UHGV virus genome: UHGV-1980310
Strand: one strand, 5' to 3'
Length of the DNA: 21,283 bases
Source of the DNA: a virus
Shown: piece after piece, positions 1 to 20,552 of the stretch
Numbering within the stretch: position 1 is the stretch's first letter
Layout: each line of letters begins with the position of its first letter
Made by a program: the position numbers and the translations under genes
Notes under the pieces: generated by a model
What the model saw: only the letters and a program-made list of their open reading frames with translations
Told to the model about the DNA's origin: nothing
Databases searched by the model: none

Positions 1-2091
1 ATGTATGTCATTGCAAAAGAACTGATTGGCGCGCCCGGAATGCCTGCTACAACAAAAGGTATTCGCCAGGCATTACAACGTTACGTACAAGGGAAAAGCT
101 GTTGTTCCCGTCGTCGCTCAGGCTCTAAAGCAACTGAATACAGCATCGACTGTTTACCTGAAGTGACGCAGCAGGCATTACGTGAACGCTACGCCCTGCA
201 ACTGATGACGCAAAAAGCCGATGAATCACCGGCTCCGGTGGTGACAAAGGCCAGACGCTCACCTGCCGTGGTTGATGCGGTGGAGGCATATCGCGGATCA
301 CCCCAACTGATGGTCGAACGCCTCAATGCCCTGACTGAAAACCAACGTAAAGTGGCAGAGGCACGAATAGCGATCGTCAGCGAGGTGCTGAAAATCGCGC
401 AACAACCCGGCTTTAGTTGCGCTAAGGCTATCCGGTTCCTCGTTAACAGCCTGGCACGATCACAACTGGACGAGCGCATTGTGGCAATGGTTGAGACGGC
501 GAACGCCAAAAAGGGAAACAGCCGCGCGTTGAGTGAAATCACGCTGAAACGCTGGATTGCGGCCTTTAACAAGGCACAGAACGCCGCTGAACGCCTGCTT
601 TTACTGGCACCGGGTAAACGCCAGGAAATAAAAGCCGAAGATATTAACTGGCTGCCCGAATTTCTGGCGCAGTATCGCCAGTCAAACGGCCGACCAATGA
701 CCGAGGCTTACGAGGATTTTGTTGCTGAATGGCAGCACCGGCACGCTGATGAGCCTTATATGCTCGATATCATGCCCTCTTATGACACCATTCGCCGCGC
801 AATGAAGAAACTGCCGGAAGTGGTGAAACAAAAAGGCCGGGTAACTGGCAGTGAATACCGTCAGCTTGAGGGATTCACGCGCCGCGACTGGTCCAGAATG
901 CCGGTGAATTATGTCTGGATTGGTGACGGTCACGGCATGAAGCTGAAATGCGCGCACCCGGTTCACGGGCGGCCATTCGCACCGGAAGTGACCTTTGTTA
1001 TCGACGGTGGCACGCGCTTTGTGGTGGGCTGGAGCCTTGACCTGGCTGAAAATGTTTTCGCCGTAGCCGGTGCCATACAGCACGGTATTCGCCATCATGG
1101 CAAACCGTTTCTGTATTACTCGGATAATGGCTCCGGGGAAACCGCCGACGTCCTGGATAAGGAGATTGTGGGGATACTGCCACGACTGGGGATTAATCAC
1201 CCGACAGGGATTGCCGGTAATCCGCAGGGACGGGGCATTATCGAACGGCTTAACCGCACATTACCGATGCGCATAGCCCGTAAATACCGCACCTATTTCG
1301 GGAAAGGAGCAGATCGCGAGACGTTACGTAAAACCAACCGCGATTTACGCTCGGCATTCAGTGCCCTGCAACAGGGCAAACGGCTGAACGCCCGGCAGCA
1401 GTCAGCGATGCGTGATTTACCGTCCTGGTCTGAACTGATTGATGCCATTCGTGACGGTGTTGAGTGGTACAACAACCGGCCGCACGATGAATTACCCATG
1501 AAGCCGAACGGTAAACATTACAGCCCGGCGGAGTTCAGAAAAAAACGCCTGGCGGAAGAGGACACGGAAATTGAATGGCTGTCCGATGTTGAACTGCGGG
1601 ATATGTTCCGGCCGATGGTGGAGCGCCCTGTAAGACGCTGTGAAATACGCTGGCTGAATAATATTTACTACGCGCCCGAGCTGCGTGACGAGCATGGCCG
1701 TAAGGTACTTATCAGCTATGACATTCATGATGCCGAACGAATTACCGTGCGCCGCCCGGATGGCAGCGTGATTTGCGAGGCGGTATGGGACGGCAATAAA
1801 CGCGAAGCCTTCCCTGTCAGCGCGGAATACTACAAACAGCAGCAGCGCCTTAAAGGCATGCGTAAACGCGCAGAGGAAAAAATCCGTGATGCCGAGGATG
1901 AGGTTGTCAACGTGCTGGAGCACAAGCCGCAGGAGCCCTGGCTGGAAAACATATACCGCCCTGTGGGTAATACGGTGACCGTTCAGCAACCGGTCGCTGA
2001 CGATGAACCTGATGAAGAATACGAGCGTAATTTCCAGCGGGGATTGCAACTGCTCGAAGCGAAATTAAAAGAAAGTGATCCGCTGGCCTGA
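1..2091 (+). CDS. A: DDE transposase, MuA-like (696 aa)
   Basis: N-terminus (KELIGAPGMPATTKGI) resembles the MuA end-binding domain start; length matches MuA (~663 aa); followed directly by a MuB-like ATPase. Homology judged from memory of MuA. Confidence 0.85.
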   Translation: MYVIAKELIGAPGMPATTKGIRQALQRYVQGKSCCSRRRSGSKATEYSIDCLPEVTQQALRERYALQLMTQKADESPAPVVTKARRSPAVVDAVEAYRGSPQLMVERLNALTENQRKVAEARIAIVSEVLKIAQQPGFSCAKAIRFLVNSLARSQLDERIVAMVETANAKKGNSRALSEITLKRWIAAFNKAQNAAERLLLLAPGKRQEIKAEDINWLPEFLAQYRQSNGRPMTEAYEDFVAEWQHRHADEPYMLDIMPSYDTIRRAMKKLPEVVKQKGRVTGSEYRQLEGFTRRDWSRMPVNYVWIGDGHGMKLKCAHPVHGRPFAPEVTFVIDGGTRFVVGWSLDLAENVFAVAGAIQHGIRHHGKPFLYYSDNGSGETADVLDKEIVGILPRLGINHPTGIAGNPQGRGIIERLNRTLPMRIARKYRTYFGKGADRETLRKTNRDLRSAFSALQQGKRLNARQQSAMRDLPSWSELIDAIRDGVEWYNNRPHDELPMKPNGKHYSPAEFRKKRLAEEDTEIEWLSDVELRDMFRPMVERPVRRCEIRWLNNIYYAPELRDEHGRKVLISYDIHDAERITVRRPDGSVICEAVWDGNKREAFPVSAEYYKQQQRLKGMRKRAEEKIRDAEDEVVNVLEHKPQEPWLENIYRPVGNTVTVQQPVADDEPDEEYERNFQRGLQLLEAKLKESDPLA

Positions 2092-5134: not shown

Positions 5135-5668
5135 ATGATTGATGCAAAAGTGCTTGAAGGGGTTAAAAACTGGCTGTGTATTTATGGCCGCCTGACCTGC
5201 GGTGTACTGGCTGAAAAAATGAATATGCCGCCATCCTCCATGGTTTATTTTCTGCGTGATGCGGTTGATGCAGGCGTGCTGACGGAATGTAACGGTTTTT
5301 ATGATATTCCGCGCCCCCGCCCGGTGCAGCCGGTTCGTCGCAAATGCAGCCAGGAATCTGCGGCTGATGATGTTCAGTGGTGCGGCTTCAGAAAATCCCT
5401 GCCATGGATTGAGGGGCATGATATTCCGTCGATGGCGTGGGAATTTGCTCAGGGCGTTCTGACCTGTGAAACCGTTTATGTGGTGGCTGAAGTTGATGAG
5501 CAGGCCATGAAAGAAGGCGTGCCCCAGTTTGTGATGGCGTATATCGACATACGCCTGGGCGTCATTATCTGCGGTTTAAGCGGCTGGAATATCACTGAAC
5601 ATGTTCTGCGCTACCTGATTGTTGACCGGACAGCAGCGCCTGCCGGGATATCTGCGGAGGTGGCGTAA
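5135..5668 (+). CDS. Hypothetical Cys-rich protein with a possible helix-turn-helix segment
   Basis: RBS GGGGAAA upstream of ATG 5135, preceded by an AT-rich intergenic region (4990-5134). Segment LTCGVLAEKMNMPPSSMVYFLRDAVDAGVL looks HTH-like. Function unknown. Confidence 0.45.
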   Translation: MIDAKVLEGVKNWLCIYGRLTCGVLAEKMNMPPSSMVYFLRDAVDAGVLTECNGFYDIPRPRPVQPVRRKCSQESAADDVQWCGFRKSLPWIEGHDIPSMAWEFAQGVLTCETVYVVAEVDEQAMKEGVPQFVMAYIDIRLGVIICGLSGWNITEHVLRYLIVDRTAAPAGISAEVA

Positions 5669-6039
5669 TGTTCTTTAAAACATCAAACCCTTCCGCGCTG
5701 GCTGCGTGGCAAAAATACCAGCAGGACTGCCAGAAAGTTAAGGATGAGGCAAAACGCCTTGAGGCCGTGCTGAATGTTGCGTGCCGGTCGGTATTTGTAT
5801 CCGGTATCAGTGGATTTTGCTTTAAGGGACTGCGTTTTACGGAGGACAAATATCCTTTTCATCGCGACTTATGGCGAAAACCGACTGCGTCGAATGGCGC
5901 TGATTTACAACGTGAACACCCGTGTGGCTTACAATGCCGGGCGTTACACGCAGATGATGAACAACACGGACACGCATCCGTTCTGGCAGTATGTGGCGGT
6001 CATGGACAGCCGTACCCGCCCGTCGCATTCCGCCCTTAA
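5668..6039 (+). CDS. ORF of uncertain status (translationally coupled start, then overlaps the F-like gene in another frame)
   Basis: GGAGG RBS and TAATG overlap with the upstream gene support a real start at 5668, but the frame stays open across the F-like ORF start. May be the 5' part of a frameshifted F gene. Confidence 0.25.
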   Translation: MFFKTSNPSALAAWQKYQQDCQKVKDEAKRLEAVLNVACRSVFVSGISGFCFKGLRFTEDKYPFHRDLWRKPTASNGADLQREHPCGLQCRALHADDEQHGHASVLAVCGGHGQPYPPVAFRP

Positions 6040-7661: not shown

Positions 7662-8795
7662 ATGAAGACAGAAAATCACCCAAAAGACGCAAATCGCCCC
7701 TCCGGTTTAGCCGTGCTTTCAGCTTCGCTGACTGCATCCGGCGACGGATGGTGTCAGTTACTGCCAGCCGGTCGGGTAAAGGCCCGTGACGGTCGCCCGG
7801 AAAAACCGACTGAAGGCTGGCTGATTAACGAATCCGCCTGTAACCGGATGAAAGCCGGGCTTTCCGCCCTGCATCAGCCGTTACTGATTGATTATGACCA
7901 TCACTCCGTGAATGCGCAGAAAAACGGATTCAAGGCTATTGCTGCAGGATGGGTTAAGCCGGAAAACATCGAATGGCGTGAGGGTCAGGGGATTTTCATT
8001 AAACCTGAATGGACACCACAGGCACAAAAACATATTGATGACCGTGAATATGCCTATCTGTCTGCATATATGCATTATTTCGCTGACACCGGGGAACCCT
8101 ACCTGTTGCGCATGGCTTCCCTGACGAATGATCCGGGTATTACGGGTATGAACCCTGTCGCGGCACTCAGTGCTGATGATCTCTATGTCGTTTCCCCTTC
8201 TCAGGAGCAATCCCCCATGAATGAGCAATTACGCCAGTTGCTGACGGCGCTCGGTCTGACCGTGGCTGACGGTGACGAATTTACACCGGAACTGGGCACG
8301 GCGGCGCTGTCTGCCCTTACCGGGATCAAAACCCGTGCGGATGCGCACGACACCCTGAAAACGCAGGTTGCCAGCCTGTCGGCAGAGCTGGAAACCGCAA
8401 AAGGCACACCAACTGGCGGCACTATTGATCTGACGAAAAACGTGCCCGTTGAGACGTATAACGCCCTGCGTACCGAATATGTCGCGTTGTCGGCACAACA
8501 CGGCAGCACCACGCTGGAGCAGTTGCTGGATAAGGCCGAGTCCGAAGGACGCATTTTCAAAAGCGAACGCGGATACATGGAAGGACTCGGACAACAGATT
8601 GGTGTTGCGGCACTTTCTGCACAGCTTGACGCCCGCCAGCCGGTTGCGGCTCTGACCACTCTTCAGACCGACACCGTAACCGTGCCGGATAAAAAGACCG
8701 CCACCGCTGCGCTGTCGGCTGAAGATATCGCCGCCGCCCATCTGCTGGGTAAAACCGAAGCCGAGTTCCTGAAAATGAAAGAGGAAATGCAATAA
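7662..8795 (+). CDS. Head protease/scaffold protein, Mu I-like
   Basis: 377-aa ORF immediately upstream of the major head gene with a stop/start overlap; Ala-rich acidic C-terminal half typical of scaffolds. Assigned by synteny. Confidence 0.6.
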   Translation: MKTENHPKDANRPSGLAVLSASLTASGDGWCQLLPAGRVKARDGRPEKPTEGWLINESACNRMKAGLSALHQPLLIDYDHHSVNAQKNGFKAIAAGWVKPENIEWREGQGIFIKPEWTPQAQKHIDDREYAYLSAYMHYFADTGEPYLLRMASLTNDPGITGMNPVAALSADDLYVVSPSQEQSPMNEQLRQLLTALGLTVADGDEFTPELGTAALSALTGIKTRADAHDTLKTQVASLSAELETAKGTPTGGTIDLTKNVPVETYNALRTEYVALSAQHGSTTLEQLLDKAESEGRIFKSERGYMEGLGQQIGVAALSAQLDARQPVAALTTLQTDTVTVPDKKTATAALSAEDIAAAHLLGKTEAEFLKMKEEMQ

Positions 8796-9742
8796 TGCCT
8801 ACCCCGATCACACCGGCGATGATCACCGCCCTGATGACGGGCTACCGTTCTGATTTTCAGGCCGGGATGTCCATGGCTCCGTCTCAGTACCAGAAAATTG
8901 CGATGACCGTACCGTCCACGTCGAAATCCAACACCTACGGCTGGCTGGGGCAGTTCCCGCAGTTCCGTGAGTGGATCGGCTCCCGCGTCATCGAGAAGAT
9001 GAAAGCCTATGGCTACGCCATCGTGAACAAAACCTTTGAAGGCACCGTTGCCATTAGCCGCGATGACTTTGAAGACGACAATCTTGGCATCTACTCCCCG
9101 TTGTTCCAGGAGATGGGGCGCGCTGCGGCGGCACAACCGGATGAACTGGTCTTTGCTGCACTGCGTGATGGTCTGAATGCGGCCTGCTATGACGGCCAGA
9201 ACTTCTTTGATACCGAACACCCTGTTTACCCCAAAGTGGATGGCTCCGGTGATGCACAGATGGTCAGCAATATGTTTGTGGCAAAAACCGGCTCTGTCGG
9301 TGCACAGGCGGATTACAGCGGCCCGGCCTGGTATCTGCTTGACTGCTCCCGCGCGGTAAAACCGCTGATTTATCAGGATCGCCGCAAGGCCGAACTGGTT
9401 GCCCAGACAAAAGTCGATGAAGGCCGTGCGTTTACTGATAACGAGTTTGTGTTCGGTGCTTCCGCCCGTCGCAATGTGGGCTACGGCTTCTGGCAGATGG
9501 CCTACATGATGCAGTCACCGCTGACGCTGGATGCGCTGTGGCACGGCTGGTCAGCCATGCGTGACTTTAAGGCTGACGGTGGCCGCAAACTCGGCATCAA
9601 ACCCACCCATATTGTTGTCCCCACCTCGCTGGAAAAACAGGCGGTGCAGCTGCTGGAGCGCGAGCTGTTCGCGGACGGTAACACCACCGTCTCTAACGAG
9701 ATGAAGGGCAAGCTGGAGCTGGTTGTCGCGGATTATCTGTAA
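8795..9742 (+). CDS. Major head (capsid) subunit, Mu T-like
   Basis: 315 aa, follows the I-like gene with TAATG coupling; size and position match Mu gpT. Confidence 0.65.
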   Translation: MPTPITPAMITALMTGYRSDFQAGMSMAPSQYQKIAMTVPSTSKSNTYGWLGQFPQFREWIGSRVIEKMKAYGYAIVNKTFEGTVAISRDDFEDDNLGIYSPLFQEMGRAAAAQPDELVFAALRDGLNAACYDGQNFFDTEHPVYPKVDGSGDAQMVSNMFVAKTGSVGAQADYSGPAWYLLDCSRAVKPLIYQDRRKAELVAQTKVDEGRAFTDNEFVFGASARRNVGYGFWQMAYMMQSPLTLDALWHGWSAMRDFKADGGRKLGIKPTHIVVPTSLEKQAVQLLERELFADGNTTVSNEMKGKLELVVADYL

Positions 9743-11124: not shown

Positions 11125-11403
11125 ATGACAACCATTTTTATTAAACCTGCGCCGGGATGCCTGATCCGCGATCCCGACACGATGACTCCGCTCTCTCAGG
11201 ACGGGGAAGAGAAACCCTTCACTCCGTTCTGGTGCCGCCGTCTTAATGATGGCGACGTCATTGTGGTGGATAAAACGGCGGAGCCTGCCCCGGCTGCCAC
11301 AACAGGTAATACCGGCGCGGCGGCAAAACCAGCGGGAGCGGCAGCAGAAAAAACTGCGGCGGTGGCTGAAAAAACCGCAGCATCAGATAAGGGGACGTCC
11401 TGA
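11125..11403 (+). CDS. Mu gp38-like small protein with Ala/Thr-rich low-complexity C-terminus
   Basis: 92-aa ORF in the gp38 position; repetitive AAEKTAA motifs at the C-terminus. Confidence 0.4.
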   Translation: MTTIFIKPAPGCLIRDPDTMTPLSQDGEEKPFTPFWCRRLNDGDVIVVDKTAEPAPAATTGNTGAAAKPAGAAAEKTAAVAEKTAASDKGTS

Positions 11404-13025
11404 TGATTAACTTTGATTATATCGGCGATAACAATCGCATTCCGCTGGTACAGATTGAAATCAATAATTCAATGGCCGTGACCGGCACTCCACCACAGCG
11501 TCAGGCGGTACTGTTGTTTGGTCAGGCTGCAATGAAAGACACCACCATTCAGGGGCGCGGTCAGCTTGATGTACCAGTACGTATTACCCGAGCTTCACAA
11601 GCAAGAGAACTCTGGGGGCGAGGTTCCATGATTGCACTGATGGTAGAGGAATTTATCGCCATTAACCCTGACACAGAGTTATATGCCATTGCACAGGGGG
11701 CTGGAACAGGTCAGTCCAGGGCATGCGTGATGAATATCATTGGAACAGCATTGGCAGACGGGGTGTTAAGTGTTTACATCGGCGGTCGCCGTTACCTCCT
11801 GCCCGTCAGTAAGGGGAAAAAAGGTAAAGAGCTTGTGGAAGAGCTGGCTAAGGTCATTAACGCTGACACTGATGCGCCATTCACTGCTATCGCAGCTGAA
11901 GTCAGTGGTGATAATGCTGAAGGACTTAAAGGCAGCATGGGGGTTAACGCCCGCTTTATCGGTGAATGCTCAGCTCATGATTTACGGGTGAACTATTATG
12001 ACGGTGAAACTACACCGGCCGGTCTTACGCTGGAGCTCGTCGCGCCAACACAGAAGGCAACAAACCCCGATATCACCCGTAGCGTCTCAGGGATGGGGAA
12101 TCGTCAGTACAACTACATCGTCATGCCCTATAAGGATGCGGCAAATCTCAAAATTCTGGCGGATGAACTGCTGAAACGCTGGGGACCGGTAAAAATGTCG
12201 GACGGTATGGTCTGGATGGCGCATACCGGCACCTTCGGTACGGCAACCAGTTTTGGTGAATCCCGTAATGACTTCCTGTTTACCTGCACTTCTATTCCTA
12301 AAGCACCAGAGCCGGATTATGTCTGGGCGGCCTCCATTTGTGCGGTCTGTGCGCCCTCCCTGTCAACGGATCCGGCCCGACCATTACAGACACTGGCGCT
12401 GCCTGCCCGTATGGCACCTGAAGCACCAGCTCGTCTGACGCGGGAAGAGCGAAACAGCCTGCTTTATACCGGCATGTCCACGGTGACCGTCGCGGCCGCT
12501 GACATGGTGCAGATTGAACGTCAGGTGACGATGTACCGTCAGAATGCATACGGCGAAAGCGATCCCAGCTATCTGGATGTGGAAACCATCTACACCCTGT
12601 CATATCTGCGTTATTCCCTGCGCACCTTTATCACGCAACGTTTTCCGCGCCATAAACTGGCTGATGACGGGACGCCTGTTCGTGCAGGTCAGAATATCGT
12701 GACGCCGGAGATCATGAAACTTCAGTTAATTTCGCTGGGTGAAGAATGGGTGGAGCTGGGACTGGTCGAAAATCTGGACACCTTTAAAAAGAATCTGCTC
12801 GTGGAGCGCAACACAAAAGACCGTAACCGTCTGGATGTGATGTGTACACCGGATCTGGTTAACCAGTTCCGCTTCATGGCCGCGCACCCGGATTACGGCA
12901 CGTTAAATGTGCTGATAAACAGCTTTGAAAGTCGTTATAACGCTGCTGAACAGGGCGTGGTTGAGTTCACCATTAATGTCACGCCGGTAAGTGATGATAT
13001 CTGGGGTTACCGGAATGTGATATGA
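11403..13025 (+). CDS. Putative contractile tail sheath protein (Mu L position), 540 aa
   Basis: Large ORF in the sheath position after gp36-38-like genes, with TGATG coupling. Assigned by synteny only. Confidence 0.5.
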   Translation: MINFDYIGDNNRIPLVQIEINNSMAVTGTPPQRQAVLLFGQAAMKDTTIQGRGQLDVPVRITRASQARELWGRGSMIALMVEEFIAINPDTELYAIAQGAGTGQSRACVMNIIGTALADGVLSVYIGGRRYLLPVSKGKKGKELVEELAKVINADTDAPFTAIAAEVSGDNAEGLKGSMGVNARFIGECSAHDLRVNYYDGETTPAGLTLELVAPTQKATNPDITRSVSGMGNRQYNYIVMPYKDAANLKILADELLKRWGPVKMSDGMVWMAHTGTFGTATSFGESRNDFLFTCTSIPKAPEPDYVWAASICAVCAPSLSTDPARPLQTLALPARMAPEAPARLTREERNSLLYTGMSTVTVAAADMVQIERQVTMYRQNAYGESDPSYLDVETIYTLSYLRYSLRTFITQRFPRHKLADDGTPVRAGQNIVTPEIMKLQLISLGEEWVELGLVENLDTFKKNLLVERNTKDRNRLDVMCTPDLVNQFRFMAAHPDYGTLNVLINSFESRYNAAEQGVVEFTINVTPVSDDIWGYRNVI

Positions 13026-13351
13026 CCGGCGCAACCATTCAGGAGCGTCAGCGTTATGCCGGGAATAAATACCGGATGAAACCCTCTCTTAACCGTGAAT
13101 TTTATATCCGGTTTGCGGCAGAGTTTGGTTATGAAATAGATATTCAGCCATCACCGGATTCACAGTGGGTCAGTATTGTCACGATTAACAGTGAAACCGG
13201 CTACCGGAATATGAATGTGCTGGATGATATTCTCACGCCGCTGCGTATTTATGAAGGCGGTGCGCTGGAATGTATTCTGAACCGTTATAAGCCTGCATGG
13301 CAGACGTTTATTTACGTGTATGCAAACAGCCATGAAGAGGAGACTATTTAA
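13022..13351 (+). CDS. Short DUF2313 / Mu gp48-like protein, apparently only the C-terminal half
   Basis: C-terminal motif [14 protein letters not shown] and central [13 protein letters not shown] resemble YmfQ / Mu gp48-family proteins, which are ~190 aa. Sits directly upstream of the tail fibre gene as gp48 does in Mu. Recollection-based. Confidence 0.4.
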
Positions 13352-14241
13352 TGTTTCATGTTGATAATAATTCCGGCGTGGCGAATATGCCTGCGCTGGC
13401 ACCAGCGCAGAGTAATACCACCACCTGGTTTACCGAAGGTGACGGACAAAAAGGTATCAGCTGGATTGGTCAGGACTGGCTGAATATTCTCCAGGCCGAA
13501 CTGCTGAATATTCTGGCTGAAGCCAGTATTCAGCCGGATAAGGCGCAGTTAAACCAGCTTACGCTGTCCATTAAAGCCATTATCGCTGCGAATGCCTTTT
13601 CCCGGAAAAATAACCTGAAAGAAATTGCTGATGCCGGTGCGGAGGCCCAGCGTCTGGCCCGTGGTTATCTTGGTCTGGGGACGCTTGCCACAAAAAACAG
13701 TCTTGGTCCCGCTGACGTTAATGCCCTGGCGAAGGATCAGAATCTCGCCGACCTAGAGAATAAGGGAACCGCCCGTAATAATCTGGATGTTTACAGCAAA
13801 AGCGAAGGTGATAACCGTTACCTGCGCAGGGAGCAGAACGGCGCAGACATTCCGGATAAAGGGGCTTTTATCGATAACGTCGGTTTACGGGAAACGGTAA
13901 ACAGGGCGGCGAATGCTCTGCCATCGGACGGCACCGCCGTTGCCGCGAATAGACTCGCCACCCCAAGAAATATTAATGGGGTTCCCTTTGACGGGACGCA
14001 GGACATAAACATCACTTCTGGTATAACACAGCAGGATGCGGATTCCCGATATATCCAGGATATCAGGCTGGGAGCAGAGAACAGGCAGGTAATGTACGGT
14101 GGGGCATATTACTCTGCGTACGGTAATGTTATGGCAGGCCTGCAGATTGACAGTAAAGTTGATGCTTCAAACGATTTTATAGCATTCAGACCCCTGCAAA
14201 AATTAGTCGGAGGTACATGGATTACGGTATCTCAGTTATAA
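13351..14241 (+). CDS. Tail fibre protein (Mu S / P2 H type); constant N-terminus fused to variable C-terminal cassette Sv in the current orientation
   Basis: C-terminus [29 protein letters not shown] and [12 protein letters not shown] are hallmark P2 H / Mu S motifs. The gene spans the left crossover site at 13868-13893. Confidence 0.8.
13868..13893. repeat. Left crossover site (gix/hix-like 26-bp imperfect palindrome) of the invertible segment
   Basis: TTATCGATAACGTCGGTTTACGGGAA; its inner half is identical to the inner half of the right site and resembles Gin/Hin-family recombination sites. Confidence 0.6.
13881..14005. repeat. Left arm of ~120-bp imperfect inverted repeat flanking the invertible segment
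   Basis: Reverse complement of ~15075-15197 matches this stretch with a few mismatches (for example GGCGGCGAATGC(T/C)CTGCCATCGGACGGCACCGCCGTTGCCGCGAA). Confidence 0.65.
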
Positions 14242-14292
14242 ATAGTCAGTAAATAATATATTTTAAAACAGATTTATTTCCAGGAGGATTTT

Positions 14293-14814
14293 ATGGAACT
14301 AAAAAATATAACCCGTTATTATCCTGAAAATATGCCATATGGTAATAATGTTCAGTATTTCCAGAGTGAAGATGGTAAGGATTTCTACGAATCCCTGCCA
14401 TTATTCACCAAAAAATATAAACTTTGCATAACACCTGACAGCGGCGTTATCTGCTCAATATCACAGGACGCCTCGGCGCTGTATCCTGCGGGGTTTTCTG
14501 TGGTTGAGGTCGATGAACTCCCTGAAGGCACGGATATTTCAGGAAACTGGAAGTTTGATAATGGCATAATCTCCCGTATTCCGGTTAACTACGCAAGAAA
14601 ACTGGAAGCAATGCGCCAGTCATATCTTAATCAGGCATATGAAAAAATTAATGACTGGAGAACGGAGCTACAACTGGGCACCATCAGCGATGAAGACAGA
14701 GCAGCACTTACCCAATGGATGGCATACATCAGTCAGGTGAAGAAAATGGAACTACCCGCCATTAAAACAGAAGCTGAATTTAACGCCATTAAATGGCCTG
14801 AGCAGCCACAGTAA
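14293..14814 (+). CDS. Tail fibre assembly chaperone (Mu U / P2 G type)
   Basis: AGGAGG RBS; 173 aa; C-terminal region (QWMAYISQVKKMELP...IKWPEQP) is typical of tail-fibre assembly proteins. Immediately downstream of the fibre gene. Confidence 0.8.
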   Translation: MELKNITRYYPENMPYGNNVQYFQSEDGKDFYESLPLFTKKYKLCITPDSGVICSISQDASALYPAGFSVVEVDELPEGTDISGNWKFDNGIISRIPVNYARKLEAMRQSYLNQAYEKINDWRTELQLGTISDEDRAALTQWMAYISQVKKMELPAIKTEAEFNAIKWPEQPQ

Positions 14815-14817
14815 TAA

Positions 14818-14837
14818 AGAAGGCCGGAAGGCCTTCT
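14818..14837. terminator. Bidirectional hairpin between convergent U and S'v
   Basis: AGAAGGCC-GGAA-GGCCTTCT: 8-bp GC-rich stem with a 4-nt loop, 4 nt after the U stop and 9 nt from the S'v stop. Confidence 0.5.
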
Positions 14838-14845
14838 GAATATCA

Positions 14846-15197
14846 TTATATACTTGCAGCCGTCACCCATGCTCCATTTAACAGATACTGCAACGGCCGG
14901 TAATACACGCCGCCGACGTTATCTGCCGTATTCTTACCGACATCCTGTACTTTAATTCCGGTAAGAACATTGCCGCCCCCCAGATTCAGATCCCAGCTTT
15001 CCCATGTTCCGGGCATATGTGCGGTCACCGACCCCAGTCTTATGGCGGTTACTGTTCCTGATGAGATAGTGATATCCTGCGTCCCGTCAAAGGGAACACC
15101 ATTAATTGTGTGGGCATTTGCCAGCCTGTTCGCGGCAACGGCGGTGCCGTCCGATGGCAGGGCATTCGCCGCCCTGTTTACCGTTTCCCGTAAACCG
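14846..15197 (-). other. Alternative tail-fibre C-terminal cassette (S'v), promoterless and inverted; would fuse to the constant part of S after inversion
   Basis: Minus-strand frame is open from the right crossover site down to the stop at 14846. It encodes ...[25 protein letters not shown]... (shared with Sv) then a divergent end ...YRPLQYLLNGAWVTAASI that parallels the Sv terminus. Confidence 0.7.
15075..15197. repeat. Right arm of ~120-bp imperfect inverted repeat flanking the invertible segment
   Basis: See left arm; the antisense shadow ORFs of the two arms translate to near-identical peptides. Confidence 0.65.
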
Positions 15198-15210
15198 AGG
15201 TTTTCAGGAA
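15185..15210. repeat. Right crossover site (gix/hix-like) of the invertible segment
   Basis: TTCCCGTAAACCGAGGTTTTCAGGAA, in inverted orientation to the left site; lies ~65 bp upstream of the invertase gene. Confidence 0.6.
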
Positions 15211-15275
15211 AGCCAGGATTAACTCTGTTTTATTCCTCATGCGACAATTCCGGCTTTTTATAATAAGGAAATCGT

Positions 15276-15847
15276 ATGCTGATTGGGTATATCAGGGTGT
15301 CAACAAATGACCAGAATACGGCGCTACAAAGAAATGCGCTGGAATGTGCAGGATGTGAGCTGTTTTTCGAAGACAGAATAAGCGGTAAGACAAGGGAGCG
15401 TCCCGGACTTAAACGCGCATTAAAGCGACTCCGGCCAGGGGATACCCTGCTGGTCTGGAAACTGGATCGCCTTGGACGCAGTATGCAGCACCTTGTCCTT
15501 TTAACAGAAGAACTCCGGCAACGCGGCGTTAACTTCCGCAGCATTACGGACAATATTGATACATCCACTCCCATGGGACGTTTCTTTTCCATATAATGGG
15601 CGCGCTGGCGGAAATGGAGCGGGAACTCATTATTGAACGTACACGCGCGGGTCTTGCTGCTGCCCGTGCTCAGGGGCGTCATGGCGGCAGACCTCAGAAA
15701 CTGACAGAGAAAGAGCGGGAGCAAATCGCCCGTTTGCTGGCTAATGGCGAGTCCCGTAAACAAATCGCACTGATATTTGATATTGGCCTTTCCACCCTTT
15801 ATCGTTATTTTCCTGCCTCACCAGCTCCGTCACCAAAAGTACCGTGA
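15276..15847 (+). pseudogene. gin: Gin/Hin/Pin/Cin-family serine DNA invertase, disrupted by a 1-nt frameshift
   Basis: N-terminal ORF (15276-15596, catalytic motif GYIRVSTNDQ) ends ...MGRFFSI*; the next frame continues MGALAEMERELIIERTRAGL... through the C-terminal HTH. Invertases read ...GRFFFH(V/I)MGALAEMERE, so one T is missing from the T-run at 15585-15588. Confidence 0.8.
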
Positions 15848-15932
15848 CGCTTTTTTGAATTTCCGCAAAACACATATTTTTCAGCGGTCGCTATTCTGAC
15901 TCTGTTTAATTCAGAAACAGGCAGAAAAGACG

Positions 15933-17987
15933 ATGTCAGACTCCAAGTGGAAAATGCTCTCCGCCATGCCCGGAGAGTTTTCAGTCAAGGTTGCCGGTGG
16001 CACGGCGGCATTTATTGAAAGCCCTTTCCGCCCTTCGGGTAATAAAGGGGGGATCACCTTCGCAGACTGCGTGATCCGCTTCAGCACGAAAGAGCCATTA
16101 TGGGTAATGCCGGTATCCGGTAATCCCAGTGCAGAAATCACCAGTTCAGGCGTGACTGGCATCATTCCAATCACATCTGACGTGGCCGGAACGCTCACGC
16201 CCTCCGACTGGAATGCACCGGATAACGCCGGGCCTTCCGGTAGCACGAATGGCAGCAGTTCAGAGCCGGAATATTACTTTGTTGTCATTCTCGCGGGTCA
16301 GTCAAATGGCATGGCCTACGGCGAGGGGCTGCCGTTACCGGATTCGTTTGACCGCCCGGACCCACGCATTAAGCAACTGGCACGCCGCAGTACGGTAACG
16401 CCCAACGGTACGTCGTGTACATACAACGACATCATTCCGGCAGACCACTGCCTGCATGATGTTCAGGATATGAGCGGGATAAACCACCCGAAAGCTGATC
16501 TGGCAAAAGGCCAGTACGGGACTGTCGGTCAGGGGTTGCATATTGCCAAAAAACTGCTTCCCTATATCCCACAGAATGCCGGGATACTTCTGGTGCCCTG
16601 TTGTCGTGGCGGGTCAGCATTCACCACTGGAGCCGACGGCTCATTCAGTGAGGCCAGCGGTGCTTCCGCTGATTCTTCACGCTGGGGGGCCGGTAAACCT
16701 CTGTATCAGGACCTGGTAAGCCGCACCAAAGTCGCGCTGGCGAAAAACCCGAAAAACAAACTTCTGGCTGTGGTCTGGATGCAGGGAGAGGCAGACCTTG
16801 CCTCAGGAAGCCAGCAGCATAATAGTTTATTCACGGCCATGGTTCAGCAGTTCAGAACTGACCTGGCTCCGCTTGCTGCGCAGTGCGTGAGTGGAAATGC
16901 CACCACGGTGCCGTGGATTTGCGGTGATACCACGTATTACTGGAAAAACGCTGGCACCGATAAATATGAGGCAGTATACGGTGGCTACAAAGGCAAGGAA
17001 GCACAGAAAATTTTCTTTGTACCGTTCCTGACGGATGAGAATGGACAGAGCACGCCAACGAATGCTCCGGCGGAAGACCCGGATATTGTGGCTGTCGGGT
17101 ATTACGGTGCAGCATCCCGAACCCAGGGCAGTTTTGTTTCGACACAGCGTGACAGCCATTTCAGCTCATGGGCACGCAGGGGCGTCATTTCAGACCGTCT
17201 GGCCTCAGCTATTATGCTCCATGCAGGGCGCACGGCTGAACTGATGCGCGGGCAGACCGTGACACCACCGGATGAGAAGCCGTCACCTGATACACCATCA
17301 AAACCGTCCACGCCACCCGCAGACACCACGACGATGAGTACGCTATTTGCTTACCGGGCATCTGAGTCTGAAGGACGGTTGACACCACAGGGTTGGGCTG
17401 CCGGAGGTGGCAAGGCTCAAATCGTGGATGATGCCGGAGCCAGCGGGGGTAAGGCAATGAAACTGACCAAGGAAACAGGAAGAGCCCCCTGGTACCTTGA
17501 GCATGATGCTGGTAATGGTGCGGACCTGCTGGGTAAAGGTGGTCTTGTCAGTTGTCGTTTTAAACTCGATGGCGCGCTTACGGCTAATCAGTACGCACTG
17601 GCGCTGTACTGGCCGGTTTCTGCCCTGCCGCAAGGGGTTACTCTGGAAGGAAATGCCGGTCATAACCTGCTGGCATCGTTCTACGTACAGAGCGATGCCA
17701 CAGACCTTAACGTGATGTATCACAAAGGAAACACGGCGCAGAACACGAAGCTGGGGTCATTCGGCGCATTTAATAACGAATGGCATACGCTGGGCTTCCG
17801 TTTTGCCGGTAACAACAGTATTGAGGTGACGCCGGTCATTGATGGTAAGGACGGGACACCATTCATGCTGTCGCAGTCTCCGGTCGGCACGTTTACGGCA
17901 GACAAGTTGCGCGTGACCGATATCACTAAAAATGCGACTTACCCGGTACTGATTGACAGTATCGTGGTGGAAGTGAATAACGCGTAA
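15933..17987 (+). CDS. Putative SGNH/SASA-family O-acetylesterase (NanS-p-like) with a Pro/Thr-rich linker and C-terminal ~210-aa domain
   Basis: Motif VVILAGQSNGMAYGEG (nucleophile Ser, nt ~16296-16307) and downstream WMQGEAD match the sialate O-acetylesterase family. Linker PPDEKPSPDTPSKPSTPPADTTT at ~17265-17335 separates a C-terminal beta-rich domain. Confidence 0.6.
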   Translation: MSDSKWKMLSAMPGEFSVKVAGGTAAFIESPFRPSGNKGGITFADCVIRFSTKEPLWVMPVSGNPSAEITSSGVTGIIPITSDVAGTLTPSDWNAPDNAGPSGSTNGSSSEPEYYFVVILAGQSNGMAYGEGLPLPDSFDRPDPRIKQLARRSTVTPNGTSCTYNDIIPADHCLHDVQDMSGINHPKADLAKGQYGTVGQGLHIAKKLLPYIPQNAGILLVPCCRGGSAFTTGADGSFSEASGASADSSRWGAGKPLYQDLVSRTKVALAKNPKNKLLAVVWMQGEADLASGSQQHNSLFTAMVQQFRTDLAPLAAQCVSGNATTVPWICGDTTYYWKNAGTDKYEAVYGGYKGKEAQKIFFVPFLTDENGQSTPTNAPAEDPDIVAVGYYGAASRTQGSFVSTQRDSHFSSWARRGVISDRLASAIMLHAGRTAELMRGQTVTPPDEKPSPDTPSKPSTPPADTTTMSTLFAYRASESEGRLTPQGWAAGGGKAQIVDDAGASGGKAMKLTKETGRAPWYLEHDAGNGADLLGKGGLVSCRFKLDGALTANQYALALYWPVSALPQGVTLEGNAGHNLLASFYVQSDATDLNVMYHKGNTAQNTKLGSFGAFNNEWHTLGFRFAGNNSIEVTPVIDGKDGTPFMLSQSPVGTFTADKLRVTDITKNATYPVLIDSIVVEVNNA

Positions 17988-18002
17988 GCAGGATAAAAAA
18001 AT

Positions 18003-18035
18003 GCCGCCGGTAAGGGAAAACAAGAAACCGGCGGC
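18003..18035 (-). terminator. Rho-independent terminator-like hairpin (strongest on the minus strand)
   Basis: GCCGCCGGT-N15-ACCGGCGGC: 9-bp stem flanked by an A-run upstream, which is a U-run after the hairpin on the minus strand. Confidence 0.4.
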
Positions 18036-18131
18036 AAAAAGATCGTTATATCCAAAGCAAAAAATGCAGTGCACCTTTTTACCTAACAGATATTACCGGT
18101 GTCAACACCATGTCAATAATTGGGAGGGATA

Positions 18132-18314
18132 ATGACATTTTTACAGCTTATTTTATTGTATTTCTGCACGGCAGTATGTGCGTTATATCTGGTGAGTGGT
18201 GGTTATAAGGCCATCAGAAATTATGTTCGCCGCAAAATTGAGGACGCAGCAGCTGAAAAACTCAGTAAAACAGCGCAGGTAACTCCGCTCCCAAAAGACC
18301 CGACCCAGCCCTGA
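18132..18314 (+). CDS. Small single-pass membrane protein (~60 aa)
   Basis: GGGAGGG RBS before ATG 18132; hydrophobic helix TFLQLILLYFCTAVCALYLVSGGY followed by a basic tail. Confidence 0.4.
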   Translation: MTFLQLILLYFCTAVCALYLVSGGYKAIRNYVRRKIEDAAAEKLSKTAQVTPLPKDPTQP

Positions 18315-18349
18315 TTGCAGGGCTTTATTCCCGCATAAGGAGGATATAC

Positions 18350-18604
18350 ATGCCAGAAATTAAAGGCACCGTCACTGAAGACCTGGTAAAACAGGCACTG
18401 TATTCCGGTGAAGTAAATAAGTTGCTGAAAGCGCAGGTCCGCAAGGATTTTGAGGCACAAATCGACACTTACGTTGATGAAGTGCTGGCAAAACTTATTG
18501 GGCCAGCAGTTGCGGCCAGTGATGCTGATAATGAGCCGAAAACCGACGCGCAGCCAGAGCAACCAGACCCGGCTCAGCCCGGAACTGACAGTACCATGAT
18601 GTAA
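18350..18604 (+). CDS. Hypothetical acidic 84-aa protein
   Basis: Consensus AAGGAGG RBS 6 nt upstream of the ATG; followed by hairpins at 18611-18636 and 18662-18690. Confidence 0.5.
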   Translation: MPEIKGTVTEDLVKQALYSGEVNKLLKAQVRKDFEAQIDTYVDEVLAKLIGPAVAASDADNEPKTDAQPEQPDPAQPGTDSTMM

Positions 18605-18610
18605 CAATAC

Positions 18611-18690
18611 AAACCGGTGGTGTCCTCTGCCGGTTTGACACTAATGAAAACATCTTTGCCGCTATCCAGCCATATGTAATCGCTGGATAG
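18611..18690 (+). terminator. Two hairpins in the convergent intergenic region (candidate bidirectional terminators)
   Basis: AAACCGG-N12-CCGGTTT (18611-18636) and CTATCCAGC-N11-GCTGGATAG followed by TATTTCGTATT (18662-18690). Confidence 0.4.
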
Positions 18691-18771
18691 TATTTCGTAT
18701 TCAGAAATATAGCTGCTTATGGAGCAGTCAATCCTGCTTCCCCATCCGGGCAGGCAAATGAACCGGTATCA

Positions 18772-19065
18772 TTAGTCCGATTCACGCTTTTGTAGAATCG
18801 TTCCCAGAATGCTATACAGCTCATTAGCCTGTTGCTCCATCATTGAGACGGAGGCTATACGGTGCAAAGTGATTTCAGGAGGTGGCACACCTCCATCTTC
18901 TTGCTGTGGAGGAAAAACATAAGATTTAATAAAAAAGTTGAAGCATATGAACTCTCCCGCACTCGAACTGTATTTGCAGGCATCTGAATAATCGGAAAAA
19001 TAATCATTATAGATTTCCGCATTTTCAATCATTTTTCGATTTCTCGTCGTTACATGATTGTCCAT
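18772..19065 (-). CDS. Hypothetical 97-aa protein, opposite strand to the rest of the prophage
   Basis: AAGAGG RBS immediately upstream of the ATG; AT-rich promoter-like region at 19066-19200. Only clearly reverse-oriented gene inside the prophage. Confidence 0.5.
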   Translation of the reverse strand: MDNHVTTRNRKMIENAEIYNDYFSDYSDACKYSSSAGEFICFNFFIKSYVFPPQQEDGGVPPPEITLHRIASVSMMEQQANELYSILGTILQKRESD

Positions 19066-19184
19066 AGCAGCCTCTTACGCTGGCAATTAACCAATTGACT
19101 TCTATAAATTAGTTGATTTGTTTGCTTTGCGGTATTCAAATGTACAATCATTCAGCACTTATGCGTTACAGCACCGTTTAAAAT

Positions 19185-19282
19185 TAGTGATCAAACTCAT
19201 AAATTTTCGCTAATGACATTTCGTGTTATTTGTTGTATCAATTAAATAAATCAAATCGATCGTTTTTGTCGATCGATTGAGT
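19185..19282 (+). promoter_or_regulatory. Putative Dam-methylation-sensitive mom regulatory region
   Basis: Three GATC sites (19189, 19258, 19271) within ~85 bp upstream of com; the last two sit in a palindrome AATCGATCG-N7-CGATCGATT. Confidence 0.4.
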
Positions 19283-19321
19283 GATAAAGATATCAACAAC
19301 AAAGCAGGAGGTTATGCGGCC

Positions 19322-19522
19322 ATGTATCGAAACATACGGTGCCGACATTGTAACAAGCTACTGGCACGAGCCAGCTTCAGTTATCTGGAAGTTAAATGTC
19401 CGCGCTGTAAAACCCTCAATCAAATCACATCTCAGAGCGCCACAGAGCACCCCACATACACAAGGAAATCCTGTCGTGGGGAACAGAAAGCAAGTTACAT
19501 CCCGTATCATCAGCACGCCTGA
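19322..19522 (+). CDS. com: Com, zinc-finger translational activator of mom
   Basis: [10 protein letters not shown]...EVKCPRCK matches the Mu Com CxxC...CxxC zinc-binding pattern; ~66 aa; overlaps the 5' end of the mom frame as in Mu. Confidence 0.75.
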
Positions 19523-20213
19523 ACTTATTCACTATAACGACAATATCGTCGGTTATGGCTCCCGTGAGTTACGGGTTGAGACAATAAGTTGCTGGCTGGC
19601 CCGGCTGGTCGTCGTCAATAAACATTACAGCCATCGTTTCGTAAATAATTCCTACCTTCATCTGGGCATATTTTCAGAACGGGAGCTGGTTGGCGTAATG
19701 CAATGGGGTTATGCCCTTAATCCAAACAATGGTGCACGCGTCGTAACTGGCACGCAGAACCGCGAATATATGGAGCTTAACCGGTTATGGCTGCATGACT
19801 GTATGCCGAGAAACTCCGAATCAAGGGCAATCAGTTACGCGCTCAAACTAATCAGACAACTTTATCCGCAGGTGCAGTGGGTTCAGTCGTTTGCAGATGA
19901 GCGTTGTGGCTGTCTTGGTGTCGTGTACCAGGCAAGCAATTTTGATTATGTAGGCAGTCATGAAACAACATTCTATGAACTTGATGGCGAGTGGTATCAC
20001 GAGATTTGCAAGAATGCAATCAAACGAGGAGGACAGCGAGGTGAACATCTGCGGGCTAATATCGACAGAGCCAGTGTTCATAAATTCCGTCAGTTTCGTT
20101 ACATCCGGTTTCTGGACAAGAGAGCCAGAAAACGCCTTAACACAAAGCTATTCAAAGTCCAGCCTTACCCAAAACCACAAACAGTTAAAACTGGTTTGAA
20201 AGAGAGTGAATGA
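19476..20213 (+). CDS. mom: Mom-like DNA modification protein; start codon uncertain
   Basis: Long ORF overlapping the 3' end of com, last phage gene before the right end, ~237 aa from an in-frame GTG at 19476. The in-frame ATG at 19314 sits too close to the SD, and there is no other in-frame ATG before ~19700. Confidence 0.65.
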
Positions 20214-20336: not shown

Positions 20337-20552
20337 CTATAACTGGCTGATGTTTTGCGCCAGCAACACGCCATCCAGCGACGGAATATTGATATCCAGA
20401 AAAATGGCGTCGACGCGGTTATGCTGCAAAAACTTCAACACGTCCAGACCGTCGTCAAAGGTGCCGACAATCTCCATCTGGCTGTGCTCTTTAATTAGCC
20501 AGCTCAGTTCCTGTTGTGCCAGGAATTCGTCTTCAACAATGATGACTTTCAC
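20337..20552 (-). pseudogene. ypdB: Host LytTR-type response regulator (ypdB-like), 5' fragment truncated by the prophage insertion
   Basis: Encodes (M)KVIIVEDEFLAQQELSWLIKEHSQMEIVGTFDDGLDVLKFLQHNRVDAIFLDINIPSLDGVLLAQNISQ then L*: the receiver domain is cut at ~residue 72. Identity as ypdB (versus paralogue yehT/btsR) is from memory. Confidence 0.6.

Follow-up and report, generated by a model that had tools for sequence, protein, structure and literature searches.

NanS-p enzymes allow pathogenic E. coli to use the O-acetylated sialic acids of mucin, and have been discussed almost exclusively as cargo of lambdoid and Shiga toxin (Stx) phages. The virus genome UHGV-1980310—a 21,283-nucleotide (nt) stretch of DNA, referred to here as the window—carries a gene of this kind in a decayed Mu-like transposable prophage, between the G-segment invertase gene gin and the com and mom genes. 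How did the gene come to be there, and what could its product do for a phage of a different type? Our answer, which draws on domain identities, catalytic residues, synteny, a recombination breakpoint, lineage restriction and purifying selection, is that the gene quite likely encodes a functional-looking NanS-p-family sialate O-acetylesterase that is cargo of the Mu-like prophage and whose N-terminal domain may be adapted to the carrier phage.

A NanS-like enzyme without the DUF1737 domain

A first-pass annotation of the window, made from the letters alone, had described a 684-amino-acid (aa) SGNH/SASA esterase with GQSN and QGEAD motifs, and closer analysis bears this out. In a profile search of the whole protein, Pfam SASA (DUF303; PF03629) matches residues 117–312 (E 1.5e-13), and residues 110–428 align with the E. 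coli sialate O-acetylesterase NanS (YjhS, PDB 3pt5) at 58% identity over 315 residues (E 1.8e-117). GQSN lies at residues 122–125, QGEAD at 284–288 and the catalytic-histidine motif SHFSS at 408–412. All of the SGNH type II blocks that we looked up are present: GQSN provides the block I serine, CCRGGS (223–228, the same as in NanS) the block II glycine, and SHFSS the block V histidine. In the alignment to 3pt5, Gln123, Ser124 and His409 correspond to Gln18, Ser19 and His301 of NanS. The aspartate of the classical DxxH motif, three residues before the histidine, is absent: the protein reads Q-R-D-S-H, with the aspartate at −2. Since NanS itself uses a Ser19–His301 dyad with Gln18 as the oxyanion residue and without the usual aspartate (PMC9063846), the window esterase fits NanS and not the classical triad.

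Judged from the sequence, we assign the esterase identity with high confidence, while specificity for sialate, by analogy with characterised relatives, is probable. By homology with NanS, Ser124 would act as the nucleophile and His409 as the general base of a Ser–His dyad, with the oxyanion hole formed by Gln123 and the block II glycine; its substrates would be Neu5,9Ac2 and O-acetylated mucin sialoglycans, from which it would strip O-acetyl groups. Every NanS-p allele tested from strains EDL933 and O104:H4 acts as an esterase on Neu5,9Ac2 as well as on mucin O-glycans in mono-, di- and tri-O-acetylated form, and these alleles support growth on Neu5,9Ac2 (PMC8065619). Esterase activity has been demonstrated for lambdoid NanS-p alleles only, and that of the Mu-lineage protein is predicted by homology.

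While the catalytic fold is that of NanS, the overall architecture is not: NanS is a single-domain protein of approximately 326 aa whose gene belongs to the chromosomal sialic-acid regulon, whereas the window protein is phage-borne and has additional N- and C-terminal domains. The C-terminal lectin-like domain of the first-pass annotation is confirmed by a match of residues 469–683 to the C-terminal domain in the NanS-p of phage phi24B (PDB 6yp6; 69% identity over 215 residues, E 7e-98) and by Pfam DUF6645 (PF20350) on residues 533–650 (E 7e-68); this jelly-roll domain would bind carbohydrate. The Pro/Thr-rich linker described in the same annotation corresponds to a Pro/Thr/Ser-rich stretch at approximately residues 441–468, within the least conserved part of the esterase across relatives. 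PHROG 143, a family whose function is not known, spans residues 71–684, and the NCBI names of identical or near-identical proteins are ‘sialate O-acetylesterase’ or ‘DUF6645 domain-containing protein’. The open reading frame (ORF) is no chance occurrence, as hundreds of homologues match it with E-values near zero.

In its catalytic residues, its Pro/Ser/Thr-rich linkers and its DUF6645 domain the protein thus resembles the NanS-p that lambdoid and Stx phages encode; its identity is 66% with the NanS-p of Stx2 phage Min27 and, over the esterase and C-terminal part (residues ~95–684), reaches 89–91% with some alleles of the DUF1737 type. As in the lambdoid proteins, no signal peptide is seen, the most hydrophobic 10-residue window within the first 40 residues scoring 1.19. 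Since it lacks a signal peptide, the protein would leave the cell only through lysis or on the virion. The nanS-p genes of lambdoid phages are late genes, induced along with the prophage (PMC8065619; PMC10462455).

The N-terminus is where the resemblance ends. Canonical NanS-p consists of three domains—DUF1737 (residues 3–53 in 933W), SASA and a C-terminal region (PMC10462455). The NanS-p-type architecture claimed in the first-pass annotation therefore holds for the catalytic, linker and C-terminal parts, but the N-terminal ~110 residues are not DUF1737 and harbour an unrelated domain instead. DUF1737 (PF08410) gives no Pfam match to the window protein at E ≤ 1, and residues 1–86 match no Pfam or PHROG family. 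BLASTP detects no similarity between this N-terminal domain and Min27 NanS-p; similarity begins only at residue 94, and linker 1 of the window protein aligns with the linker that joins DUF1737 to SASA in Min27. At the DNA level, homology to both lambdoid loci compared below begins at 16265, i.e. at codon 111, in the first residues of the catalytic domain (PEYYF).

AlphaFold, supplied with a nine-sequence alignment, predicts a five-stranded all-beta domain (pLDDT ~75–91 over residues 7–79), shaped like a small beta-sandwich or a cupin-type barrel, with a disordered linker after it. Because DUF1737 has been described as one helix plus three strands (preprint 10.64898/2026.04.10.717836), the modelled fold would differ from that of DUF1737. 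We conclude that an unrelated beta domain of 86 residues, specific to the Mu lineage, stands in place of DUF1737, with the exchange made at the inter-domain linker. The protein is a NanS-p family member by its catalytic domain, its C-terminal domain and the genes that flank it, and departs from the family in two defining features, DUF1737 and the lambdoid late-region site. What was known already is the enzyme itself, which is ordinary; what is new is the swap of its N-terminal module in a different type of phage. Our literature search found no paper linking NanS to Mu-like phages, which does not exclude a prior description of the Mu-lineage variant.

Three further observations concern the reading frame and its expression. 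A minus-strand ORF at 15911–16246 that overlaps the N-terminal domain was rejected as spurious, as it is the plus-strand frame that is conserved and under purifying selection. Of the SSP-type autoprocessing motifs proposed for phi24B gp84, linker 1 contains SSSEP and linker 2 contains no SSP, with conservation too low to claim processing. Finally, a promoter and terminator scan gave counts at or below the shuffle expectation and no convincing promoter upstream of the esterase.

A lambdoid three-gene block between gin and com

In Mu, gin (35092–35673) is separated from com (from 35768) by 94 bp; in the window the gin–com gap is 3.47 kb. The first-pass annotation was right that the esterase is inserted here relative to Mu, with two amendments: the insert of ~3.5 kb contains not just the esterase but also a DUF1378 gene, a DUF826 gene and a variable AT-rich slot with a minus-strand ORF, and the invertase gene to its left is a pseudogene. 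The same three genes occur in the same order in lambdoid phages. Stx2 phage Min27 has stx2AB, nanS-p (ORF46), ORF47, ORF48 and holin S, with ORF46, ORF47 and ORF48 being 66%, 53% and 38% identical to the window esterase, DUF1378 and DUF826 proteins, respectively. A non-Stx lambdoid prophage has Q, nanS-p, DUF1378, DUF826, holin, lysozyme and Rz1, and its DNA aligns with window positions 16265–18266 at 87.8% identity. Given the common three-gene block and this level of DNA identity, we take the Mu-like element to carry a lambdoid late-region block, with sequence similarity pointing to fairly recent recombination with lambdoid alleles. In lambdoid phages nanS-p is found between Q or stx and the holin gene; here its position is between gin and com/mom, and the carrier is a Mu-like transposable myovirus prophage. 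Escherichia, Shigella and Salmonella thus harbour the esterase–DUF1378–DUF826 block in transposable prophages of the Mu type, and there it is still exchanging DNA with lambdoid alleles.

From the adjoining receptor-binding switch, the first-pass annotation had argued for a role in modifying host or mucin glycans, or in adsorption. In a rival reading, the protein would be a virion-borne receptor-modifying enzyme that deacetylates a bacterial surface polysaccharide (O-antigen or capsule) for adsorption, and its place by the tail-fibre switch would be meaningful. The tail-fibre G segment and gin do lie immediately upstream of the gene, and SASA/SGNH domains are found in phage tail proteins, as reflected in a weak PHROG tail-protein match (1.2e-6) and a match to a minor tail protein of an Arthrobacter phage; moreover, the possibility has been raised for NanS-p in a review (PMC8065619), and the phi24B enzyme is virion-associated (preprint 10.64898/2026.04.10.717836). 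Nevertheless, we consider this explanation unlikely. The catalytic domain is NanS-like and related NanS-p alleles act on sialate and mucin, while the phi24B enzyme is anchored on the capsid and not on the tail. The argument from position is itself weak: in lambdoid phages the block lies between Q or stx and holin, next to lysis genes and far from tail genes, and intact Mu-like relatives without gin still carry all three genes. Since the block is found elsewhere between Q or stx and holin and is kept after the loss of gin, the gin–com gap looks like a cargo slot with no functional tie to the G segment.

DUF1378 and DUF826 accompany the esterase in lambdoid and Mu-like phages alike, and this conserved trio hints at a functional unit. 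Two IMG/VR loci (L011 and L016) depart from the pattern: after the Mu-type esterase comes a DUF1378 of lambdoid type (57% identity), without DUF826, com or mom directly behind it, and in L016 com and mom are found inverted ~6 kb away. This layout suggests chromosomal rearrangement through recombination of Mu-borne with lambdoid nanS-p paralogues. A search with a 5.5-kb query matched 1320 genomes; we do not use this count as nanS-p prevalence, as the query also contains gin and tail-fibre-assembly sequences.

Distribution and constraint of the N-terminal domain

An exhaustive HMMER search with the N-terminal domain over 1.84 billion representative sequences returned fragments of the same protein, one weak match to a repeat protein over a 30-residue stretch (P0007), which we treat as uninformative, and a single true distant relative (P0006, 28% identity). 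The latter is a Salmonella enterica protein that combines the N-terminal domain, a Pro/Thr linker and a GQSN esterase, and its gene lies downstream of gin within a Mu-like prophage. Word-indexed searches of protein sequences, run with the domain alone or with a three-sequence profile, returned mostly fragments, and a scan of GTDB species representatives with a profile of the domain found nothing. Among phage records the domain is present only in Mu-like phages inserted within two Stx phage records (60% identity), where an intact gin is followed by the esterase, DUF1378, DUF826, com and a C5 methyltransferase.

IMG/VR contains 34 loci with the domain, which fall into two subtypes (95–99% and 61–63% identity). 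Where the contig is long enough, the genes downstream are the esterase, DUF1378, DUF826 and com with either mom or a methyltransferase, and those upstream are tail-fibre genes with or without gin. Mu-like neighbours were found at all 34 of these loci (contig permitting), in the Salmonella prophage, in both Stx-record insertions and in three E. coli chromosomes. A set of 5426 complete genomes of E. coli included 32 with the domain, in up to three copies per genome. Overall, we saw it in no context other than a fusion to this esterase within Mu-like prophages of the three genera named above.

Selection on the domain is strongly purifying. Between the window and STEC299 it differs by 18 synonymous and only 2 non-synonymous changes, giving a ratio of non-synonymous to synonymous substitution rates (dN/dS) of 0.03, as compared with 0.11 for the catalytic domain in the same pair; the range per domain across relatives is 0.03–0.15. 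The low value of 0.03 marks the N-terminal domain as a constrained, functional part of the protein. The partner domains, in turn, are exchanged. The C-terminal domain has been replaced in some relatives, with identity to that of the window falling to 34% in STEC299 and 40–46% in several IMG/VR loci, and the esterase together with the C-terminal part is close to DUF1737-type alleles, as described above. The gene is thus a domain-level mosaic in which only the N-terminal domain is fixed in the lineage. Among individual relatives, the locus at 6001–8133 of L010, as well as L040, L041, L043 and L044, has a C-terminal domain 34–46% identical to that of the window together with an N-terminal domain that is 95–98% (L010) or ~61% (the second subtype) identical.

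What could the domain do? The phi24B protein gp84 has been reported as a capsid-decoration protein whose DUF1737 domain forms a hexamer on hexon centres (preprint 10.64898/2026.04.10.717836), and the Mu-lineage domain occupies exactly the position of this capsid anchor. It may therefore do the equivalent job for the Mu-type virion, or provide some other adaptation to a Mu-like phage. Docking on the virion is, in our estimate, a tentative assignment: the domain would be a module specific to the Mu virion and a functional substitute for DUF1737, and attaching to the particle would be the purpose conserved among NanS-p N-termini, re-invented for another capsid or tail architecture; we hold this generalisation, too, as a possibility short of an even chance. 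Another possibility of comparable standing leaves the esterase reading intact and makes the domain a second carbohydrate-binding, oligomerisation or solubility module that is not tied to the Mu particle. Beta-sandwich and cupin-like barrel shapes are common in carbohydrate-binding and dimerisation modules, and we found no similarity of the domain to virion proteins. On the other hand, a generic module would be expected to spread, whereas this one is confined to Mu-like prophages even though its partner domains recombine freely with lambdoid alleles, and it sits precisely where the capsid anchor of DUF1737 type would be.

Virion-associated SGNH esterases are known from phages and other viruses, with examples including the O-antigen deacetylase tailspike gp63.1 of phage G7C and the haemagglutinin-esterases of influenza C virus and coronaviruses. 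The Mu-lineage protein is similar to these in pairing a serine O-acetyl-glycan esterase with a lectin-like domain and a candidate particle-attachment module; the likeness is at the level of the SGNH superfamily, and virion attachment on the Mu-lineage side is a hypothesis.

The exchange amounts to a natural domain-swap, in which the Mu lineage has replaced exactly the reported capsid-docking module with an unrelated domain that is strongly constrained, and this makes the question of whether the N-terminus serves virion attachment directly testable. If the docking reading is true, the particles of Mu-like phages from gut Enterobacteriaceae would bear a sialate O-acetylesterase with a lectin domain, either for interaction with mucus or for feeding the surviving lysogens. 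Furthermore, since Mu-like elements transpose and reach up to three copies per genome, they offer this colonisation factor a separate route of spread.

The carrier prophage and its genes

The window is matched by a Mu-like prophage of E. coli TOE17 and DLI.5a, with a single mismatch over 14000–19500. In TOE17 it represents the element from the MuA transposase gene (window 1–2091) to the right end at 20341, inside ypdB. TOE17 annotation and Pfam together identify a MuA transposase, a MuB-type ATPase, Gam, Mu-type head and tail genes with the major head protein encoded at 8795–9742, a G-segment invertase gene, com and mom at the right end, and insertion into a host gene. Beyond 20341 the interrupted ypdB (fragment 20343–20552) is followed by ypdA. 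As transposition would lead one to expect, sister copies are found in various genes, among them bglJ, bcsA and flgL, and up to three occur in some genomes.

The prophage has suffered two large internal deletions. One has left an early gene abutting a truncated minor head gene near 5668–5898, with the loss of the genes for lysis, terminase and portal. The other cuts the tail sheath gene short near 12884; genes for the tube, tape measure and baseplate are lost, and the remaining part of the sheath gene is fused to fragments of the tail-fibre region (ORF 11403–13025; deletion region 11403–13351). Late-gene activators are missing too. The window prophage is unable to lyse the cell or assemble particles, and any benefit from the esterase here would depend on other prophages or on the element's further copies in the genome. 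The sister copy in DLI.5a has a different deletion pattern and retains the lysis genes.

Such decay could mean that the esterase is silent leftover cargo of a dying prophage, of no use to phage or host in this window, as would be consistent with the two deletions, the frameshifted gin, the loss of activators and lysis genes and the lack of a convincing upstream promoter. We find this improbable. The 684-codon ORF is intact amid broken neighbours and keeps all of its catalytic residues, its relatives evolve under purifying selection in every domain, and the same allele is found, at 99.7% identity, in intact prophages. The latter makes the decay a recent event that tells little about the family. 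Intact relatives of the element include the Mu-like prophages in E. coli S1-CAM-01-A and M3 (loci L007 and L006); a functional-looking esterase remains our favoured reading.

The features of the insert and its neighbours are collected in Table 1. The gin frameshift results from one T missing from a T run near 15585. Most relatives have gin in frame (e.g. L012, L019, L010 and L003), and L024 has the same frameshift spacing as the window. Inverted repeats at 13873–14021 and 15057–15205 (86 nt with 93% complementarity and 50 nt with 84%) flank a ~1.1-kb G-segment-like invertible region, which contains the 3′ end of the tail-fibre gene, a tail-fibre assembly gene and, on the minus strand, a 60-aa remnant of a tail-fibre C-terminus (14846–15028). 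With gin broken, this region is presumably locked.

Table 1. Coordinates of the esterase gene, its domains and the neighbouring genes in the window
Feature	Position	Strand	Basis or remark
gin-type DNA invertase, frameshifted pseudogene (left neighbour)	15276–15847	+	Resolvase and HTH_7 split over two frames; RefSeq note ‘frameshifted’
NanS-p-type sialate O-acetylesterase, Mu-lineage variant	15933–17987	+	Complete ATG-to-stop ORF, 684 aa
N-terminal domain, residues 1–86	15933–16190	+	All-beta, lineage-specific, in place of DUF1737
Linker 1, residues 87–112, Ser/Gly/Pro-rich	16191–16268	+	Predicted disorder: pLDDT <50 at residues 87–110
NanS-like catalytic domain (SGNH type II/SASA), residues 113–435	16269–17237	+	PDB 3pt5 and Pfam SASA
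Ser124 codon (GQSN), predicted nucleophile	16302–16304	+	Aligns to NanS Ser19; Gln123 codon directly before
His409 codon (SHFSS), predicted general base	17157–17159	+	Aligns to NanS His301
Linker 2, residues 436–468, Pro/Thr/Ser-rich	17238–17336	+	Sequence
C-terminal lectin-like jelly-roll domain (DUF6645), residues 469–684	17337–17984	+	PDB 6yp6; Pfam PF20350
DUF1378 small membrane protein, 60 aa	18132–18314	+	Pfam E 1e-31; single N-terminal hydrophobic helix
DUF826 protein, 84 aa	18350–18604	+	Pfam E 6e-16
Hypothetical ORF in the variable slot	18772–19032/19065	−	Between DUF826 and com
com and mom (right neighbours, Mu right-end genes)	19322–20213	+	com 19322–19522, mom 19476–20213

At the right end, Mom is 78% identical to Mu Mom (Pfam E 1.6e-77) and Com 45% identical to Mu Com. 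DNA-level alignment to Mu is found only at gin (15173–15705, 70% identity) and mom (19525–20173). In L003 (12420–13472), L028, L034 and L039, a C5 cytosine DNA methyltransferase gene takes the place of mom directly after com. The variable slot between DUF826 and com (18605–19321) is AT-rich, with a GC content of 32–38%. Its minus-strand ORF matches nothing in Pfam, PHROG or NCBIfam and has promoter-like and terminator-like sites of its own; other small genes occupy the slot in relatives, such as an ORF resembling a CxxC zinc ribbon in L003.

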